Source: Folioceros fuciformis (taxonomy: Eukaryota). From it: a DNA stretch of 62,532 nucleotides. The first letter of the stretch is position 1. Each line of letters starts with the position of its first letter. The DNA lies in the NCBI GenBank assembly GCA_049999805.1, contig JBNGIO010006279.1:1-62532 (forward strand), read 5' to 3'. Below, in pieces: positions 12,212 through 25,835 of the stretch. The notes beneath the pieces were generated by a model. That model was not told where the DNA came from, searched no databases, and worked only from the letters and a program-made list of their open reading frames with translations. A program made the translations under genes and the position numbers.

Positions 12212-15200
12212 ATGGGGGAGCTCTCCACAGCAGATGGCTCTGAAGTAAGAATATCTCCAGCTGAGCCAGCTCGATCACCTAACAACACTTGTGTTCGTGG
12301 CTGCTGCCAGAACGATAACATTTCATTATGCGTCTCTAAACCCGGGCTGCAGCTGGGCCAGGAGATAGCAAGAGGTAACGGCCTGAATGGTCTTTGCATA
12401 TAGGCCTTGCTTAAACATGCAGCATACCTTGAACTGACGTGTTCCAATCGAAGGTGCGGAGAGCGTGGTCTACGCAGCAAGTCTGTCTGGAAGACCAGTA
12501 GCAGCGAAGAAGCCAAGGTTGGCAACTGTTAATGACATTGATCGGTTTCACCAGGAACTTCAGCTTTTGAGGTTAGTCTCACAGTCAGAATGTGGTTCTT
12601 GCAATGCCCCCCTTCCCTTAAGAGGTATGTGTGATTCAACATTGTGCAACTACTCACCTGTTGGCTGCTTGTTTCTTGTTTATTCTGCAGTGGACTGGAG
12701 CACCCCAATATTGCCTTGCTTGTGGCTGCCCGAGCTCATCCGCCTGATTACATGTTTCTGTTCGACCTTTTTGAGAATGGCAATCTCTCCCGAGCTCTAC
12801 ATGTCCTGGAGTGGCAACCTTCCTTGCAGCAAGTGTTAACGATTGCCAAGCAGCTAGGTTTTGTCGCCTAAACCCTGCTCCTGCTTGTTCTGGTTTCTTG
12901 AATCCCTCCCTGTTAGCTGGTGTGCCTCAATCTGAAGTCACTGACGACGAAGGACTCGCACGTGCAGCAAGTGCTCTAGGCTACTTGCACAAGAAGGGTG
13001 TTGTACACAGGGACGTGAAGCCATCCAACATTCTGGTACACCTGCCTTCTCTAGCAGCATTTCAGTGCAACTGTATGTATGAGCTGCAACTTCTTGAGGC
13101 AAATGGTTGCCCTTGCATGTGCTCGCAGCTTGATAGCAGTTGGGGAGCCCATCTATCTGATTTTGGTCTGGCAACTTATGTCAGCAATCTAGAACAGCCC
13201 AGTGTCCTTAACTGGAAGCCGACTGGCAAGCCAACCGGCGGGTTTCATAAGAAAAACATGGTCGGGACTCTGCTGTACATGGCCCCTGAAGTTCTGAAGA
13301 AAGAGGTGCAAAGTGAAAAGTCTGATGTCTATGCCTTTGGAATTACCATCAAGTGAGTTCAAGAAATGTAGAAACTGTTCAGGTCATGGATTGTTTGAGG
13401 CTTTCAGGTCTCTCTGTGAGCTGATAGGCGGACTGCACAATCTGGTAGGTGGCTTTTAACAGCTTCTGCTGTATGTGGCAGTGAGCTCATAACTGGTGTT
13501 GTTCCTTATACAGACCTGAGAACTGAAGCTCAGGTTTGTCCGACAGCTTATTGGTCATGACAAGAGTTTCCAATGAGGCTTGGGTTTGATCTTAACACCA
13601 TTTATCCTTACAGGCTCACACAGTTCTGGAGATGAACTATACAGAGCAACAACTGTCTGCTGCAGTCTCATCAGGAGAATTGCGGCCTAGTCTTGCCACC
13701 CTGGAGATGGGTGCGCCAGCCAGCCTCAGCTCGCTGATAGAGCAGTGCTGGCACAATGATCCATCACAGAGGCCGTCCTTTGATGATATTATCAACAGCC
13801 TTGCAAGCATCAGTGCGGACCCCGTTGTAGTTGCGGAGCACAACGGGCAAACCCGGATGCCCTCGAGAGGATCTACAACCCAGCCAAAATACGTTGATAT
13901 GGATCTCACTGATGTCGATTGGTCAGCTCGTGCTGCGGAAAATGGTCCAGGGGCAGGCGCTGAGCTGAAGGAAACTCGTGCAGAGTGGCCATGTGCATCC
14001 ACGAGTGACTCATATGTTCCGAAGTTGACGTGTGGCTTCTTTGCTACTCAAGGCGCCAGGGAAACGATGGAAGATACAAACTTCGCTCTGTCTCCGTTTA
14101 TGGATCAACCGTACATGCACTTGTTTGGAGTTTTTGATGGACACAGAGGTATTTCCTGCCGGCCTGTGCGATGATGGACGTCTAAATTCACATCTTGCAA
14201 AGTGGATGACGGACTATTTTGGCTTTCATCATTCTCATCTCTGGGAGTGTGACTGCAAGGTTCTGAGGCAGCGGAGTTTTCGGCCTCTGCCATCCACCGT
14301 CACCTGTCCAAATACTTGACCTTGACAAGGTGTTCGAATGACCTCCTATTGCCCACGTTCAGGTTTGAGATGCCCACAGGTCTTGAAATTCTCACAGTTG
14401 GCTGGTGTTCATTGGCAGCCCAGCAGAGGCCTTACAGTCTGCCTTTGTTCAGACAGATGCTTCATTCCGTCGTGAGCTTGATTCGCTACGGGATCAGAAG
14501 AAAGGTGGTGGAAGAGAGTGGCACCCTGGGTGCACCGCTGCCGTGGTTCTGGTGTTGAATGACAAACTCTTTGTTGCCAATGCCGGAGACTGTAGAACTA
14601 TTCTGTGCAGAAAAGGTGCAGCTGTGGAACTTAGCCAGGTATGTGGCTTCTGCAATCCCCTGGCTTGGAATTGCCTCCAGCACATGCTCGTTCCACTTTT
14701 GTGTGAAAGATGGTCGCTCTGCGTCGGGGATTGTTGACACTTGCACATGCTTTGCCAGGACCACACCGCTGATTGTGTTGCAGAACGGGATCGGGTAGTT
14801 AAGGCAGGAGGCTATGTGGAGTGGCGTGTTGGTGCTTGGCGTGTGGGTGCTGCGGCACTAGAGGTACTTACGTTTTTGTCTTGAGCACTGTGTGCCTTCC
14901 TTTCCTTCGCAACCAGCTGCATGTCTGTCTGCTAAACCCCTCCTATGTTTTCAGGTCACTAGATCCATAGGTGACGATGACCTTAAACCGGCCGTGACGG
15001 CAGAGCCAGAGATTCAGGAAGTCACGCTGTCAGCCGATGACGAGTTCTTGGTAAGAAGGAAGAAAGTGTGTGTGATGCTTGTATCTGAATGTGTCAATGT
15101 CTCTCCCATCTCAACTGTGTTGAACAGGTGATGGCAAGCGACGGGCTGTGGGAAATCCTTGATAACGCGGAAGTGGTCTCCTTGATCAAGAACACGGTCA

Positions 15201-15322
15201 AGGAGCCTTTTATGTGTGCCAAGAGGCTGGCCTCTGAAGCGATTGAGAAGGGCAGCAAAGATAATATCACTGTCATCGTAGCCTTTCTCCGCCCCGTCTC
15301 CACGGTTGAGCGTATCTATTAA
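12212..15322 (+). CDS. Protein kinase and PP2C-like domain-containing protein (At2g40860-type), multi-exon
   Basis: N-terminal PNNTCVRGCC. Kinase motifs VAAKK, HRDVKPSN, LSDFGLA, MVGTLLYMAPE, SDVYAFG. PP2C motifs RETMED, FGVFDGHRG, VANAGDCR, VTRSIGDDDLK, ASDGLW, GSKDNITV. Confidence 0.95.
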
Positions 15323-15755
15323 CCAATTGAAATTTTGCAACACTTCTTCCTCTTTCCAAAAGCAAGGAAGTACATACGTACACGAGGGCGGCTTGAGGTA
15401 CTTCGGCCGAAAAGCAAGGCACCCATCCATTGAAGTATCCACGCGTGCATGTATAACAGGGGGCTTGCCAGAAAGCTACATAGGAGATCGAGAAGTTTAT
15501 TCCAGATGACGTCACGAGTAAATAGACAAGCAATCCATTCCAGTCAGAACCTTGTGGACTGAGCTGGGTTTTATTGTACACTCTCACCACGCGCTCACGT
15601 AAGGTTACCAAGACTGAAATTAATTTCATACCTTCCCTCATTACCTTTTGAGCAGTGGATCAGTGAGGGCGCCCTTGTCCAGGGACCTCACTTCCAGATG
15701 GGGCCATGTCTTGGCGCTTCCAACCACATTCTTCACCAAGATGGTCGACCCGCCA

Positions 15756-16835
15756 TCACCCATATCCCAACTTCACAGTGTCGAGCTTGAGCGTATCCAG
15801 CAGGGAACGTGCATCAGATTGAGGGCCATCATCATTGGGAACGGGAGCTGGTGCGCTGATTGTCTCATCTACCAGTACTAATATGGTGGGGCGTGGGGGA
15901 GAGGACAGTGGTTGTCGGGTGTAAAGCTCCAGGCTGGTCTGCTCTGCGTTTCTGGCCTCTAATTTCAGGGTGTTCATTGCAGCAATGTAGAAAGCCACTC
16001 CTAAAGAACTCGAAGCGAGGGCAAACACACCAGCAGCCGCAAATAGTCCTTGCCTGACCACTAAGCACTGTGAATGTGGTTGCCCGTCATCCTGAAGATG
16101 ATCAGCTTCAACTGTGATGCCAATAAGCAATAATACTGCTGTAACAGCGAAGCTTATCCTGCAAACCAACACAAGCGCTCTGCTCAACACTTACTAAACT
16201 GAGCCAGATCCACCATAAAAATAAGTAGGAAGCAAAGAGGAAGTGATATGAGCCTTGTGAAAGGCCGGGGTGGGGTGCGCTCACCAGGACATCACAAAAA
16301 AGGCAGCAGCTTGCCAGCGGAGGGACGCAGCCGATATCGAGCTTCTGGTTAAGGGCGTGGAGGATCGAAACGTGTTCCGAGTAGGTGGGTGGCATAAGGC
16401 AATACCCATAAATGTTTGTCCAGCAGCAAGTGCTACAATAACGGCCACAAGGGCACCTGCTGCACAGCTCACTGGAGAGGTGCCATTGTTGGTGTACATA
16501 CACATGATAACCACTTTCGGATTTTCGCCAGGAGGGATGACAAGATCCCATTCAACCTGCAGTTGCAAGTTCAGACAACAAATAAGCATCTGTGCTCGAC
16601 ATACAAAAGTCTAGACTGCAGCACGTTCTACATTGATAGCTAGGCAACCAGTGAAAGGCAAAAATAGAGAAAGGAGAGCATGATGTACCTGCGATCTTGT
16701 TGTTTCGGCCACCAAGCAGAGGACGAAAGCGACCAGCCCCAGAACTGTACATAGAACCATCACAATCGTTCCCTTCCTACTTCCAAGCATACCCTTGCTG
16801 GGATCGACCTCGAGGTCTGCGTGCGTGACGGCCAT
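15756..16835 (-). CDS. DUF1218 family multi-pass membrane protein (3 coding exons)
   Basis: MAVTHADLE...LGLVAFVLCLVAETTRSQ | CMYTNNGTSPVSCAAGA...FFVMSW | ISFAVTAVLLLIG...CLVVRQGLFAAAGVFAL are typical DUF1218 motifs. Confidence 0.9.
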
Positions 16836-17473
16836 TGCCTCGACCTGCTCCTGCTACTTCCAGTCAAACTACAATTCCCAGCTTTGTGACGCCCTTAAAT
16901 CACGGTCGGCCCAACCACTGAACAAGCCCTAACAGAAGCTAGACTGAGAGTCTCAGCTTCCAACGCGCATGCCTGAATTCACAATCATGCGACAGTTAGA
17001 CGCCCACTCCAATGCATCGCCGGGTCCTCAGATAACCTAACGGCAGAAAGATGAGCACGCATTCCCCTCCCTTCCCCCCTAGGCCAACCCGATCCGAGAT
17101 CCCGCTTCTCGTCTACAAGAACTCCACGTGTTGTTCCTGTTCACAACTCACCTCGAAGGCCTCCGACACTTCATGTCTTCCTACCCCCGAGCTCAGATCA
17201 ACCCGCTTCCCTCCGCTACAGTGCCAGATCCCGGGACCGAAGACAAACAATCCCCGAAATTCCAGCGGCACCGGATTGGCCGCAATCTAAACGGAAGCCG
17301 AACCCGAGGTCGCAACAACGATCCGAAACCAAACAGCCGCCTTCCCGATGCCAATGCGCAGATTAGTCCGCCACCAAGCGCAACCAGAATTCCGCATTAG
17401 CTACAGCTCCGCGTCCATCTCCTCCCTGGGATCCGAATTCCCGATCATCCTTCCACCAGAATTGCGCGCCCTG

Positions 17474-17546
17474 TCAAGAAGAGCTGCCGTGTGCTGTCCA
17501 GGTACCCCGGAGCCGGGATCCCGCCATGGCATCCGAGCTCCCTCCA
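17474..17546 (-). promoter_or_regulatory. Candidate 5'-leader stem-loop with embedded 17-codon uORF (MAGSRLRGTWTAHGSSS*) upstream of the DUF1218 gene
   Basis: uORF ATG at 17527, TGA at 17476-17474. By-eye pairing: GGGAGCU/AGCUCUU, GCCAUG/CACGGC, CGGG-AUCCCG/CGGGGU-CCUG with a GCUC loop. Confidence 0.5.
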
Positions 17547-18221
17547 ATGCCGCAGCGACGGCCGCACGCCTGGCCCCCGCTCCTGTCACGCCCCGATTAT
17601 AGATCGCTCCACCGCCCTTGCTCCCGCTCTTTCCTCCGCGCGCACTGACGGAGATCGGCAGAATGCTGCGACACGCGAGTGGCGAATCGCGAATCTCGAA
17701 TCGCGGGACGCGAGTCGGAGGAAAGCAGCGCAGCCACAATGGATCACAAGGCGGCACATCCAGCCAGAATGCCACGCCAGAGGGAGCAGGCTGGGGCGAA
17801 GCACGGCCAGGTCAGGCAGGCAGGTGCCAGCCTCGGTCCCCCGGAAGATGTGGTAACTGGCTCGCTCGCCTCCAGCTCCAGCCTCCAGGTCGGGGACCGG
17901 GTCGGGTCGGGTCGTTATCACGCCTATCTCGACCCGGCCAGCCGATTTAACGATACCAAAATAAAAAAACAAGCCATTGGGAATCGAGACGCGTGTCCGG
18001 GGGGTGAGGCGTAACATGGCAGGACGCAACGCGGCAGGCGTCCAGGCGGTCAACCTGAGGCGCATTTTCCGTGGTACAAAGAGGATGTGCCTGAGAACAG
18101 AGCCGGCGCACCTACTGCACCTTGGCGCTGGGCTCCACCTGACCTCACCATCGCTGTATTTCGATCGTTTCTCCCGCAGTGTGCGTCTCAAACTGTGGAT
18201 CATCTACAAATCTAGCTCTAA

Positions 18222-18290
18222 CCAGCCTGCAATCTGTTGCAGCCATTCTCTCCAGCCTGCAATCTGTTGCAGCCATTCTCTCCAGCCTGC
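18222..18290. repeat. 30-bp tandem repeat, about 2.3 copies
   Basis: CCAGCCTGCAATCTGTTGCAGCCATTCTCT at 18222 and 18252, with a partial copy at 18282. Confidence 0.85.
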
Positions 18291-18858
18291 ACTGTGTCAC
18301 TGTATATTGCAGCCTGTCCATCTCCGTCCACCTGTACTTTTCAAAGATTAGGATATACGACGCTTAGCATGCTGGAAAACAGTATATCCTTGCACAAGAG
18401 TAGACCACCTACCATCCACACCATGACCCACGTCGTGAAAAACAAAGTTCAATTTCTGAATGAAAGACACAAGCCAAATTCCTACCCGTCATGACTAAGA
18501 GAACCTGGGAGTAGAGAACCCAAGGCAACACAGAGGTTTGGGCAGGAGCTCTGGCCTGGAGGCTGGGGCGTCTTGTCGAGTTGCAACAGACTGGCTACCG
18601 GACATCCCAGTCAGTGGGTGAGGCTTTTCAGCCCTCGGTGGCAGATGATAGTGAAGTTCTGATCGGTCGAAGATGTTAAGTAAATGCTGAAGGAAATGAG
18701 TGCTCGCATGGAAGAGACATTGTTCGTCTACCTACAAAAATCCAACGGAAGATGAATATCATCCCCGGGTACACGTGGTTAGGGACGAGAGGTGAAGAAG
18801 TGAGGAGCACTTTTTTCGGGGCGGGAACAGGCCCATCTTGTGGTTGGTTATTAGGCTA

Positions 18859-19878
18859 CTAGGATTCTGGTTCAGCTTCGTCCATGACTTTGATGTCGTC
18901 TCGCGAGGTGATCCTTTGCACAAAACCTGGCGAGGGGTGTGGAACAATTAGTAGGCTGCAGTGCACCGTGAGAAGTAGTAGGGCAGTGCTCTAAGGAGAC
19001 GGTGGGAGGGAGGGTGACGATGCGTACCGAGCCCAAGACAGGCTATGCAGCTGCTGTTCACCTCTCGCCCCCTTTTCCGGTGGAAGCTCACCGTGCCTGT
19101 GCCTTGACAGCTCTTGCACTTGCCTGTCCATTGGTAGACCACGTTCTTGCACTCCTGCAAAATAGAAGGCAACTGTTCAGACGACATGCAGCTGAACCCC
19201 GTGTTGCGCAACACCTAAACCCTACCAAAACCTTGGATCTTCGAGGAGGATGGTGAGCACACCTGTACTTCTGCATTGCAGTTCACAAGTTTATCGACTT
19301 CCTCCTTGGAGAGGGGCTTGGGCGAGGGGTAAGCCAGGGGCAAGGGTAGGGCCGAGTCCTTCTTCAGCCGGCTCTCTTCTTTCTTCTCCCACCACTTCCT
19401 AGCATAGATTGTAAGACTAGGACCTGCGCCAAACAAACCAGCGCTATACGAAGATGGTCAGATTGCGAAATCTCCAACCGGAGCTCCTGACAGCAAATCC
19501 GATGGACATTGAGCAGCAGAAACGAGAGATCCTTACCAGCATAGCTGCGAGCTCAAAATGTCAGGACAAGGCGAAATGCAAACTCCCCACCGCACGCTCT
19601 TCCCTTGGCGCCTCCCCATCCCCAGTCCACTGCACTGCTCCTGCCATCTGGTGCCGCCCAGCTGAGACACAGCGACAGGGCCGGGCCACGGCAAGGATAC
19701 TGATGGAGCAATGCTGCATTCTAAGGGGACGGAAAGCCAGTGAGCAGCAGGAGAAGGCGTCATGGGCTTGGCCTGTAGAGACTCCAATGCTGCACAAGCC
19801 TCAGCGCTGCGCCTGACAAAGAGCCTCCAGGGTACAAAGCAGAGGCACAATCACTACCGACCTGGCAACCACTGCCAT
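18859..19878 (-). CDS. SCO2: Chloroplast DnaJ-like zinc-finger protein disulfide isomerase SCO2/CYO1 homolog; 5' exon structure uncertain
   Basis: KWWEKKEESRLKKDSALPLPLAYP...EEVDKLVNCNAEVQ | ECKNVVYQWTGKCKSCQGTG...CIACLGLG | FVQRITSRDDIKVMDEAEPES* matches the SCO2 layout (CxxCxGxG twice). Alternative start at 19763. Confidence 0.85.
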
Positions 19879-20318
19879 GAAGTGATCACGAGGTACTGTG
19901 ATCGCTCCACGCACCTGCTCTGGCCGCCATGACTGACTCCCACATTTATAATAAAATAAGGAGCAGACAGGTTGAAGGATGAAACGTGCCTTGCCTCTCA
20001 AGCTCCCGCATATTCTCCCTTCATCGAGCTTGAGAAGTCCTGCAGCGTGCCTGTCGCACGGAGATGATACCTGGCCGGAAATTGTCCAGGCGGCCACTCC
20101 TTACATTCACATAGCTTGCCACTGGACAAGTGGCTTTTTCTTGCTGGTGAGCCTTCCGAATCCAGCACCAGCCCTATTCTGAGAGGCTGGGCTTACATTA
20201 CGATGTGCTTTTGCAAGCCTGGCAGGAATCCTTAACAGCGACCACCGAGGGAGTGATGGTGTCGTCTCCCGGATCTGGAATCTGAAGCGGAGATAGGGCA
20301 CATCACGGGCGCTGTGAG

Positions 20319-22617: not shown

Positions 22618-24093
22618 CTAGGGTTGGGCATCTTTGTTTGGCTTGAAAGTGATGAGCCCGACACATGGCAATCTAGGCGTGTTCGTCCTTGGCATCCCTT
22701 CCAACAATTCCCAAAACCGGTGGATATAGTCAAACATCACTATGTTAACGGAACGGGTGGCCACATTCCCGGTAAAGTAGATAGCGCGTTCATCGGCATC
22801 CAGAATGGTCCAATCTTTGGAGAACCGAGAGAAGAAGGGCCTTGCTGTGCGCACGCTGCGTAAGAGGTCATCTGGCATTTCCGATACGTGTTCCCATCTC
22901 GGTTCCTGGTGCTGGGTGAGCGAGTCATGGCCTACCAACTCCCAAACGCGCACAAAACTGACCATCGGTCTACCATGAAAGTCCGTCCTATACACTCTTT
23001 CGCCGCGTCTGAGGGTCCACGGTCTCCCAAATAAGTCCGTTATCTGTTCTACTTGGCTGCCTGTGACGATCGCGATCCCCAGTTTACCAAATACGTTCGC
23101 TATCCCTATTCTTTCGCTGCCTGTGCTGGCCGTCGGTGTAGCAATCAAGTCCTTCAAAAGTTTTCTTTCACTGCCTGTGACAACTACGAAGATCCTATCG
23201 CCACATCCAGCCAGCGTCATGCTTATAAACGGGCCTTCTATGTCCAGACTTTCAGAGGAAGCCTCGTGAATGAAGGTCCACTCCTGAGCTTCAAGATCGA
23301 ATCTCCAGATCTCCATGCTGTCGTAAACAGCACTTGTCGAGGACCTGGCTTTGAAGAGGCAGTATAATCTTCCTCCCGAGCAACACTTCCTGATGCTTAC
23401 AAGATCGTCCTCCCTCGGATTTACCAATGGAGGCCAAGAATTGCACGTCCTCCATCGTCCCCACCTCGAACGAAAAATAGCCAACCTCGGAGTCTCGATC
23501 CCGATGAAGAGCAAAACGCTGTATTCTTGGGCCGTGTTTGGGTCGTCCTCCGACTGAACCATCTTCAATAGTTTCAGTTGTGAATCATTTTCTTCCCAAA
23601 CAGGCAGACTTTTTCTTGTTTGTGGCGACAGCGGGTTAAGCACCTGGATGCGATGCCGGTACCTGTGAAACCTGTTTGACCCTGAAACCAGCTCACCTCG
23701 CCACAAAACCAAAAGCCCGTTATTCCCTGCCTCCAAAAGTTCGTACACGTCCCATGGACCAACGGCGGGCCACGCTGGTACACGCTTTGGCAACCATCTT
23801 GTGTGTAGCGGATTGTGGATTTGTAGTATTTCATCCCTGTCATAAATATGTCCTAGTCTTCTTGTGATCGGAGACCCCGTAGACAAGATATTGGTACACA
23901 TGACCAAGCAGGTACCAGTCTTCCGCACTTTGCACGAGCTACATGCCTCTCTCCAACGCTTACACACCAGCTCTGCGGATAGGAGGTGAGGATAGCGCAA
24001 ACACGGTAGAATGTGGGCGGAGAAAGCATCGAACATCCCGTAATTCAAATCTTGCAAGCAATTGTTCTCCACCAACTCGCCCTCACCATCCAT
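22618..24093 (-). CDS. F-box protein, copy 1 (491 aa from MDGEG), intronless CDS
   Basis: F-box LQDLNYGMFDAFSAHILPCLRYPHLLSAELVCKRWREAC, followed by a beta-rich plant F-box-associated-like C-terminus ending FKP. Paralog of the two copies below. Confidence 0.88.
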   Translation of the reverse strand: MDGEGELVENNCLQDLNYGMFDAFSAHILPCLRYPHLLSAELVCKRWREACSSCKVRKTGTCLVMCTNILSTGSPITRRLGHIYDRDEILQIHNPLHTRWLPKRVPAWPAVGPWDVYELLEAGNNGLLVLWRGELVSGSNRFHRYRHRIQVLNPLSPQTRKSLPVWEENDSQLKLLKMVQSEDDPNTAQEYSVLLFIGIETPRLAIFRSRWGRWRTCNSWPPLVNPREDDLVSIRKCCSGGRLYCLFKARSSTSAVYDSMEIWRFDLEAQEWTFIHEASSESLDIEGPFISMTLAGCGDRIFVVVTGSERKLLKDLIATPTASTGSERIGIANVFGKLGIAIVTGSQVEQITDLFGRPWTLRRGERVYRTDFHGRPMVSFVRVWELVGHDSLTQHQEPRWEHVSEMPDDLLRSVRTARPFFSRFSKDWTILDADERAIYFTGNVATRSVNIVMFDYIHRFWELLEGMPRTNTPRLPCVGLITFKPNKDAQP

Positions 24094-25835
24094 CGTGCCG
24101 ATGCACGCTGAAAATGTCGCCAGACCGTATCGAATTGTAACAAACCCTTTTCTCTGTCTGCCGAAGACCTTGTGTAGGCGGAGTACAGTGTTACATACAC
24201 CGTTCCCAGTCTCGCCCGGTCCCTCTCCAGGAGAATAGAGATCAGGTAGGAGAAACCACAGGCAAAGTATCCGTTCCAGCCATGGCTGCTTTGGCGTTCC
24301 ACCTTCTTCAACGTGAGATTCAACGATCAGGTGACACTGCAGGCAGTCAGCATGTATCTTGCAATTGTATGTGAGAAATATCAGCAGCACGCTGAATCAG
24401 GCCACCCACTTCTCGTTCCAGGACAATGGAGATCGAGGAGTGGAAACGACAGCAAAATGTCTTTCCCAGCCCTGGTTTCTTGGGCTTTCTACCTTCTTCG
24501 CATTCGGGGTGAGGGGAGGTTACTAGTACGACAAATTCGTGGAATTCTATCTACGAAGGAGAAATTGAAGCTAGGCACACACCACATAATAAGTCCTACA
24601 CATGATACAACTTCACGGGCCCCGTCAGAAGTCCGGCACAATAAATTAATTCAAAAGCTGGGCACCTCAAAACTCATTAAAATTCATACTGGGTTTCAAG
24701 AGATAAAATTCATATATGCCACTCACAGAAATCATTGCATATGGTGTGAAAACTAAGGATTAATGGAGACTAGCATATATGAAGCTTCCAATGCATGTTA
24801 TATTTTTTATCAAATAGCATTAGGTTTTATGAAATTTAGGGTAGCTTTTATTGTGTTAGTTGCTCTTTGTTGAACTAGTGAATTGCATCANNNNNNNNNN
24901 NNNNNNNNNNNNNNNNNNNNNNNNNNNNNNNNNNNNNNNNNNNNNNNNNNNNNNNNNNNNNNNNNNNNNNNNNNNNNNNNNNNNNNNNNNCCACACAGTA
25001 GTGCAAAGTAGTCTACACTGATCTTCTATGACATTGCTCAAAAGAATTGCTCAAAAGCCTATTGTTGCATGTTTTTTCCACAAAATATTCTCTTTTCATG
25101 TTCTAGAAATAATTTTGTCACAACGCACAAATAATGAAAAGGATAGTAGTGACCTAATGTTGAGGTTATTTTGAAAACCATGGGTTAATCTAACTTGATT
25201 AATATATATATCTTTAGGATTTAATTAACTCAATATTATATAAAAAACATAATTTTGTACACATTATTAATTAAAGTTCTTTTGTTGCATTGCATTATGC
25301 GCTCCTGGCTTAAGAAAGTCTAGAATATTTGTATAACTTGACAAGGTATTATAACTATTAATGCTTTGTGTGTTCTACTGCCAAAGTCATTGACATCTAG
25401 TCTACCTTTATGCTAGCAAATGCACAGCTAGTAATTTAGTGAGTTTAGCATCGCACACCATCCACCTTAGGTGAACGGAGTTCCTTTAAATTACTGACCT
25501 GCATAACATATGTCAATAATCTGCAATTTGGCTGGCTACTACTAGTTCAAAATTACTACAAGGTCTGTGCCTAACGGTTGGATTCTGCCAAATCAAGTAT
25601 TGAAAGATTTTTTTTGGCTTTTTTTCATGGCATATATCCATGATTCATGTTGTTTCATGTGGACGATACCGAAATAAATTGAACATTCAAGATGCACTTC
25701 GTATTCATCATGTTCACCAAGAAACCATGCGAAATTGCAGGTTGGGAACAAGAAGCTTCCTTGATACTATCCAGTTCCATGGTTGGACTGCTGTTCCTGG
25801 CTACAGCCACATGCTATAATAAATTCCAAAATCGG

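Follow-up and report, generated by a model that had tools for sequence, protein, structure and literature searches.

The window analyzed here is a stretch of 62,532 nucleotides from Folioceros fuciformis (contig JBNGIO010006279.1), which carries on its minus strand a gene containing a DUF1218 domain; all positions given below are those of the window, and features lie on the minus strand unless indicated. The spliced ORF of this gene codes for 273 aa. It consists of a first coding segment of 49 aa starting with MAVTHADL (16689 to 16835, recognized by homology and with its exon end set by a transcript joint), followed between 15756 and 16556 by two other coding exons (16556-16285 and 16158-15756, the latter including the stop codon), which are separated by a coding intron at 16284-16159, these borders being likewise set by transcript joints. 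Pfam assigns the last coding exon to DUF1218 (PF06749; E-value 1.9e-9, score 38.3 bits, cutoff 25.3). According to the opening part of the abstract of PMC4773003, this family is specific to land plants.

A search for homologues, carried out with single-exon queries in the 'longer' class only, returned a partial list of three proteins, all of which carry PF06749. The best of these three relatives is a protein of 261 aa (P0001), named at NCBI as a hypothetical protein of the lycophyte Diphasiastrum complanatum. Its N-terminus likewise reads MAVTHADL, and it shares 65% identity with the Folioceros protein over residues 1 to 49, i.e. over the whole first coding segment. Because this ortholog-like protein starts at the same MAVTHADL, the alignment validates the main AUG at 16835 and shows the region upstream of it to be a true leader. 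No paralog of the DUF1218 gene was found within the window, and the leader, its intron and the upstream region have no other match there, the only hits being chance ones of at most 23 nt (E at least 0.94).

The transcript evidence comes from run X1, which contains 0.73 of the words sampled from 16600-17760. A single X1 contig of 4315 nt covers 15300-16157, 16284-16554, 16687-16971 and 17151-17875 with no other letters and no gaps. It makes three joints, and the skipped parts all have the ends CT..AC, that is, GT..AG on the minus strand: two correspond to the coding introns, and the third takes 179 nt out of the 5' UTR (16973-17151). The run is labelled 'RNA? (a guess)', and we treated this contig as cDNA-derived because its three GT..AG joints fall at coding exon borders. 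The gene model is thereby extended by a non-coding first exon that spans at least 17152 to 17875 (0 mismatches in the X1 contig, joined to 16971), a leader intron of 179 nt (16973 to 17151, GT..AG, placed by the joint 16971/17151 with the cut shifted by +1 according to the splice-site letters), and the 5'-UTR portion of exon 2 up to the main AUG (16836 to 16972, from the X1 contig and the uORF census). The upstream end at 17875 is the end of the contig and as such a minimum rather than a mapped transcription start; read depth, 59.3 for the contig of the gene and 6.8-12.6 for those lying over 17853-18500, cannot fix the start either. Runs X2 and X3, from other organisms of the same study, contain no contigs at 80% likeness or more and are evidence neither way.

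Within the first exon, an initial annotation had singled out positions 17474 to 17566 as a leader element formed by a long hairpin with an embedded uORF. The spliced joints connect this interval with the DUF1218 coding exons, and it therefore lies in the mature mRNA, inside the 5' leader, as had been proposed. The letters quoted for it agree exactly with the minus strand from 17545 to 17474, and the GGG run at 17520-17522, for which a check against reads had been advised, is confirmed in the RNA-derived assembly, where the X1 contig has no other letters. An AUG in GCCAUGG context does open at 17527 a frame reading MAGSRLRGTWTAHGSSS, which stops at UGA 17476-17474. The adjacent frame also reads as described, VRPSLRHWRELGCHGG, although it starts at 17567, one base beyond the 17474-17566 interval; it lacks its own AUG and comes after the stop of an upstream uORF of 57 aa. 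The distance of about 640 nt to the DUF1218 start holds as a genomic distance, from the 3' end of the element to the main ATG at 16835, whereas in the spliced mRNA 512 nt separate the AUG at 17527, at position 349 of 861 of the leader, from the main AUG downstream.

The spliced leader is at least 861 nt long and contains eight uAUGs. The first uORF of the leader starts at 17759 in a weak context and codes for 57 aa (17586 to 17759). The second was absent from the initial annotation: it starts at 17532, only 5 nt upstream of the AUG at 17527, codes for 43 aa (17401 to 17532), and overlaps, in a different frame, the uORF described above, which codes for 17 aa (17474 to 17527). The context of the 43-aa uORF is weak (C at -3, C at +4) and that of the 17-aa uORF strong (G at -3, G at +4), so that the third uAUG of the leader is the first strong one, the two before it (17759 and 17532) being weak. 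The census further gave two nested uAUGs in frame with the 43-aa uORF (17448 and 17418), a uORF of 36 aa starting at 17397 (17287 to 17397), one of 18 aa starting at 17174 and spanning the exon junction, and one of 5 aa starting at 16970. Eight ATGs are fewer than the 14.3 +/- 2.7 expected, a number as low being reached by 30 of 2000 dinucleotide shuffles, which is consistent with selection against uAUGs in this leader. ATGs in strong context are unremarkable in number, two against 2.7 in shuffles. Nowhere else in the first, non-coding exon is the GC content as high as in the flagged stretch, where it is about 0.70-0.74.

The hairpin had been drawn by eye as a multi-stem structure of about 70 nt. 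It can indeed be drawn, with an MFE of -29.7 kcal/mol for the 72 nt quoted (17474-17545), but it does not exceed what is expected by chance: against dinucleotide-preserving shuffles, used as control in all foldings, it has a z-score of -1.01, and 315 of 2000 shuffles fold as well. The full 93-nt interval (17474-17566) folds at -44.4 kcal/mol (z -1.99, 64/2000 shuffles as good), and the 121 nt of 17460-17580 at -54.5 kcal/mol (z -0.57, 49/200). The 161 nt of 17440-17600, whose folding had been suggested as a check, reach -65.3 kcal/mol with a z-score of -0.16, equalled or bettered by 82 of 200 shuffles. The opposite, plus strand of the 93-nt interval folds at -39.7 kcal/mol with a z-score of -2.61 (13/1000 shuffles as good), and its self-complementarity is therefore not strand-specific. 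This symmetry and the pairing seen by eye are both accounted for by a local cluster of 6-bp palindromes, five of which (GGTACC, GGATCC, CCATGG, GAGCTC and CGGCCG) fall in 17474-17566 against 1.84 expected, a number reached by 57 of 2000 shuffles. We conclude that the element is not thermodynamically exceptional, since shuffles of matched composition reach its stability and both strands have the same property.

When the region from 18100 to 16703 was scanned in 88 overlapping windows of 93 nt, six had a z-score of -2 or lower. The scan window at 17590..17498, which overlaps the flagged interval, has the second-lowest z-score (-2.59; -1.92 and -2.10 in repeats, with 7/200 and 60/2000 shuffles as good) and the lowest absolute MFE of all 88 (-49.4 kcal/mol), at a GC content of 0.74. 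It is not significant once the scan is allowed for, and its low MFE tracks GC. In 17100-18500, no inverted repeat is as long as 12 nt (9-nt seed). This absence, together with a longest predicted helix of 10 bp against the nearly uninterrupted stem of approximately 20 bp or more needed, led us to reject a hairpin of the miRNA-precursor type.

The same scan revealed only one strongly non-random structure, at 17200..17108 on the minus strand, well outside the flagged interval. Its z-scores are -4.5, -4.7 and -4.3 (0/200 and 2/2000 shuffles as good), and it is strand-specific, the plus strand giving -0.12. It is predicted to comprise two hairpins, one on either side of the leader intron's 5' splice site. 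The one in the exon (17191-17152; -17.3 kcal/mol, z -3.1, 0/200 shuffles as good) ends at the last base of the exon and encloses the uAUG at 17174. On these folding predictions, the 17200..17108 structure would deserve attention more than the original element.

Although unexceptional in stability, the fold predicted in context for 17498-17590 is well defined, the MFE and centroid structures being identical and the MFE structure having a frequency of 0.54. It comprises three short hairpins and no single long one. A first predicted hairpin, H1 (17552 to 17583), lies upstream of a second, H2 (17528 to 17551), whose 3' arm contains the weak AUG at 17532. H2 is followed by a predicted linker of four nucleotides, AUGG (17527-17524), that bears the strong AUG, and then by H3 (17499 to 17523), a predicted 10-bp hairpin, interrupted by one bulge and closed by the loop GCUC, that starts 1 nt past this AUG. 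H3 folds at -14.6 kcal/mol over 33 nt, and 29 of 200 shuffles are as good. The predicted probability of being unpaired is 0.001 for the AUG at 17532 and 0.448 for that at 17527, with a median of 0.076 over the leader. The weak AUG would thus be buried and the strong one exposed just before a GC-rich hairpin, a tidy arrangement, albeit one predicted from a single sequence.

Such a disposition may be read as a lineage-specific translational gate, in which H2 would sequester the weak uAUG while the AUGG linker would present the strong one ahead of the GC-rich H3. We regard this as very unlikely. Its 'off' conformer would be either a pairing of GGGAUCC with 17432-17426, as seen in the 101-nt fold, or the long-range pairing put forward in the initial annotation, where the codons for GCHG and AHGS were noted to be near reverse complements. 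The latter idea stands weakly, since UGCCAUG (17531-17525) and CACGGCA (17491-17485) are complementary at six of seven positions, but in the MFE structure the helix between these codons is only 3 bp long and pairs the Cys codon UGC with the Ala codon GCA.

We then considered whether the element has relatives, as RNA, as peptide or as DNA. The proposal that it is a conserved RNA structure acting as a cis-regulatory switch finds no support: the stability is in the range of shuffles and not strand-specific, the predicted fold is one of three short hairpins, and no Rfam family matches the element in a cmscan of 15000-20000 at E <= 1. The sole Rfam match in that region is to WT1-AS_5 at 17137-17225, with an E-value of 0.94 and 17.3 bits against a gathering score of 80. 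A reading as a riboswitch or other Rfam cis-regulatory family was accordingly set aside, nothing in 15000-20000 matching at the gathering score. Among metagenome contigs, the exact 26-nt core of the element has no matches, and with the translated second coding exon as query 598 pattern matches came up, of which none was confirmed.

Nor is there support for a conserved peptide. None of the seven ORFs that lie within the leader exon or overlap it, on either strand, has a Pfam match at E <= 0.1, and this includes the two overlapping uORFs. A search of 5.8 billion proteins returned no relative of the 43-aa uORF at candidate lengths of 23-76 aa, and none, at 22-70 aa, of the 40-aa frame between two stops in which the 17-aa uORF lies; not one candidate had three 5-residue words in common with them. 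Both negatives are weak, since a search that requires three such words is insensitive for very short peptides. The leader peptide of the form GCHGG...WxAHGS that the initial annotation mentioned from plants could not be traced; as it had observed, GCHGG and AHGS are here in different frames, and they therefore cannot belong to one peptide. A link between DUF1218 and uORFs is absent from the open-access full texts searched, and the sole co-mention is in a review on leaf mutants that is unrelated by its title and abstract. The same full texts gave nothing on CPuORF together with Selaginella.

These results bear directly on whether the element could be a CPuORF, in which the nascent peptide of 17 aa (or 43 aa) would stall the ribosome on a metabolite and so control the main ORF. 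CPuORFs are exemplified by the leaders of SAMDC and bZIP11, and their gene lists are usually given in supplementary tables. What the element shares with them is a small uORF whose AUG is in a favourable context, within a long plant mRNA leader, here a verified one; the initial annotation also mentioned a similar, unverified peptide from plant leaders. The difference is that the defining conservation of the peptide is not seen, with no relatives among collection proteins of 22-76 aa, in which those Arabidopsis CPuORFs that are annotated as proteins would be expected. Given also the separate frames of GCHGG and AHGS, the lack of Pfam matches and the silence of the open-access full texts searched on DUF1218 and uORFs, we consider a CPuORF highly improbable. 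A comparably remote candidate is an RNA G-quadruplex of the two-quartet type, which would form from the G-runs at 17551-17498 and repress translation. The leader is indeed rich in G on its mRNA strand (314 G against 214 C) and mildly enriched in starts of G2-type motifs (32 against 19.4 +/- 6.6, with 86/2000 shuffles reaching 32), and one merged G2 run spans 17551-17498. However, it has no canonical three-quartet motif, its eight G2 runs make the one at 17551-17498 nothing special, and the competing Watson-Crick hairpins are very stable; on balance, there is scarcely any likelihood in this reading. Slightly less remote, though still decidedly improbable, is a signal at the DNA level, whereby the palindromes at 17380-17600 would be a cluster of sites for dimeric transcription factors in the transcribed, promoter-proximal region and RNA pairing a side effect. 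This 221-nt interval holds 10 six-bp palindromes against 3.96 expected (11/2000 shuffles reach 10), a density attained by only 20 of the 3116 bins of the window and making it the second densest locus therein, and folding that is equally good on both strands favours such a view. Against it, the interval was picked after being seen, and over the entire leader exon there is no enrichment (17 palindromes against 13.7; 422/2000 shuffles reach 17). The palindromes are moreover all different words except GGATCC and GAATTC, present twice each, and the minimum 5' end of the transcript is 350-400 nt upstream of them.

The rival with the closest precedent is start-codon selection by uAUG-ds. As described by Xiang et al. 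(Nature 2023, PMC10499604), these are hairpins that mostly begin no more than 25 nt downstream of a uAUG and promote initiation at the uORF; their energies over the 101 nt downstream, -19.9 to -34.1 kcal/mol, are more negative than at non-initiating AUGs, their stems are GC-rich and of 12-20 bp, UCU/UUC is enriched in their loops, and they are opened by helicases of the RH37/Ded1 type. By analogy, H3 would slow scanning and drive initiation at the uORF, and a helicase of the Ded1/DDX3 type, unwinding H3 in some condition, would release DUF1218 translation. The likeness to the published system is real in several respects: a predicted GC-rich stem in a uORF-containing plant leader, its first paired nucleotide lying at +2/+3 after the AUG at 17527 and at +7 after that at 17532, hence within the reported 25 nt; a 101-nt MFE downstream of 17527 of -33.1 kcal/mol, inside the reported range; and the predicted exposure of the strong AUG and burial of the weak one. 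The energy criterion, however, does not discriminate. The 101-nt MFEs downstream of the eight uAUGs and the main AUG run from -26.2 to -35.3 kcal/mol, with seven of the nine in the reported range and two slightly beyond it (-35.0 and -35.3), a consequence of GC content. The fold downstream of 17527 is no better than that of shuffles (z +0.53, 132/200 equal or better). The predicted stem of H3, 10 bp with one bulge at -14.6 kcal/mol, falls short of the 12-20 bp reported, and its GCUC loop differs from the UCU/UUC enriched there. With a shorter stem, another loop and an energetic property common to every AUG of the leader, the element would be a weak uAUG-ds at best, its membership in the class is not established, and we hold this reading to be unlikely, if less so than the other rivals.

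What these comparisons leave as the probable explanation is an ordinary, structured leader with several uORFs that generically dampens DUF1218 translation, in which the hairpin would not be a selected switch nor the peptide conserved. The expected order of AUG usage and the repressive effect follow from the rules of scanning, leaky scanning and reinitiation (Kozak). Scanning 43S complexes would leak past the weak uAUGs at 17759 and 17532 and then initiate at 17527; ribosomes would translate 17 codons and stop at 17474, after which reinitiation would be needed past up to five further uAUGs before the main AUG at 16835 is reached. The leader as a whole would in this way dampen DUF1218 translation, and the local hairpins, stable at about -49 kcal/mol over 93 nt, would act as a generic, non-specific barrier to scanning. 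The hairpin itself is probably a by-product of GC content and of the local cluster of 6-bp palindromes.

In its kind, such a leader does not differ from the generic class of long, multi-uORF, intron-containing 5' leaders, which is the best-fitting one. Leaders of this class lower translation and can sensitise the mRNA to nonsense-mediated decay (NMD); in plants, the rules for the latter involve uORFs above about 35 aa and introns downstream of the stop. The uORFs of 57, 43 and 36 aa all stop upstream of the exon-exon junction 17152|16972, and we infer that they could sensitise the DUF1218 mRNA to NMD. Known genes of the family, such as MWL-1/2 of Arabidopsis (PMC4773003) and those of a preprint on Marchantia and AtTVA (10.64898/2026.08.17.745377), share the DUF1218 domain with the gene downstream of this leader; regulation through the leader is not mentioned for them in the opening parts of the two abstracts.

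If the leader is only a generic damper, the element matters little, long GC-rich leaders with multiple uORFs being common in plant genes. It then carries a caution, namely that hairpins drawn by eye in a palindrome-rich sequence of 70% GC are to be expected by chance. The useful product is the corrected gene model, with a non-coding first exon, a leader intron of 179 nt and a main AUG that the lycophyte relative validates. Should the arrangement of H2, the AUGG linker and H3 nevertheless prove to be a translational gate, it would be the first case outside angiosperms of start-codon selection by a downstream hairpin, extending the uAUG-ds principle, and it would offer a way into the regulation of a plant membrane-protein family that is still poorly understood.

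The uORF-bearing stretch of the DUF1218 leader flagged in the initial annotation (17474-17566, minus strand) lies within a cluster of 6-bp palindromes. Between 17380 and 17600 we counted ten of these (GAATTC and GGATCC twice each, and GGTACC, CCATGG, GAGCTC, CGGCCG, GCGCGC and TAGCTA once each) against 3.96 expected, a number reached or exceeded in 11 of 2000 shuffles, and it is this density that makes the flagged region fold strand-symmetrically. By the same measure the locus ranks second in the window. The densest stretch, 25021-25400, with up to 18 palindromes per 221 nt, lies close to where the N positions of the window start (310 in all, the first at 24891); it is likely to be a simple repeat that borders a gap in the assembly.

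The spliced leader as a whole (16836-17875, intron removed) is G-rich on the mRNA strand, with 314 G for 214 C, and poor in ATG triplets, of which it holds eight where shuffles give 14.3 +/- 2.7 (eight or fewer in 30/2000).

Upstream of the gene, a 30-nt unit is repeated three times in tandem at 18217-18306 (identities 100%, 93% and 63%), where short contigs of X1, a sequencing run taken as cDNA-derived, break and overlap, one of them matching two places. Contigs of lower depth at 18262-18500 may mark the 3' end of the nearer upstream gene. Two open frames lie further upstream, both on the strand of DUF1218: an 88-aa ORF stretch (18951-19214, minus) with a weak match to the DnaJ CXXCXGXG zinc finger (E 0.013; 16.2 bits, below the cutoff of 32.7), and a 592-aa stop-to-stop frame (22621-24396, minus) with weak matches, below cutoff, to an F-box-like domain (E 5.7e-5) and to the KIB1-4 beta-propeller (E 5.6e-4). 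At the other end of the gene, whose stop codon is at 15756, the X1 contig carrying the DUF1218 mRNA runs on for 2176 nt past 15300 (record positions 1-2176); either the 3' UTR is very long, or the contig has been merged with a neighbouring, possibly convergent, transcript.

Among the 88 windows of the leader scan, the top non-random fold lies at 17108-17200 on the minus strand (z -4.5). Refolding gave z -4.67, with none of 200 shuffles as stable, and a larger shuffle set z -4.29 (2/2000), while the plus strand scored only -0.12. The predicted structure consists of two hairpins, with the 5' splice site of the leader intron (179 nt) between them. The exonic one (17152-17191, minus; z -3.1, 0/200 shuffles) terminates on the final base of the exon and encloses the upstream AUG at 17174. 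This exonic hairpin might affect how the leader intron is spliced or how the AUG at 17174 is used.
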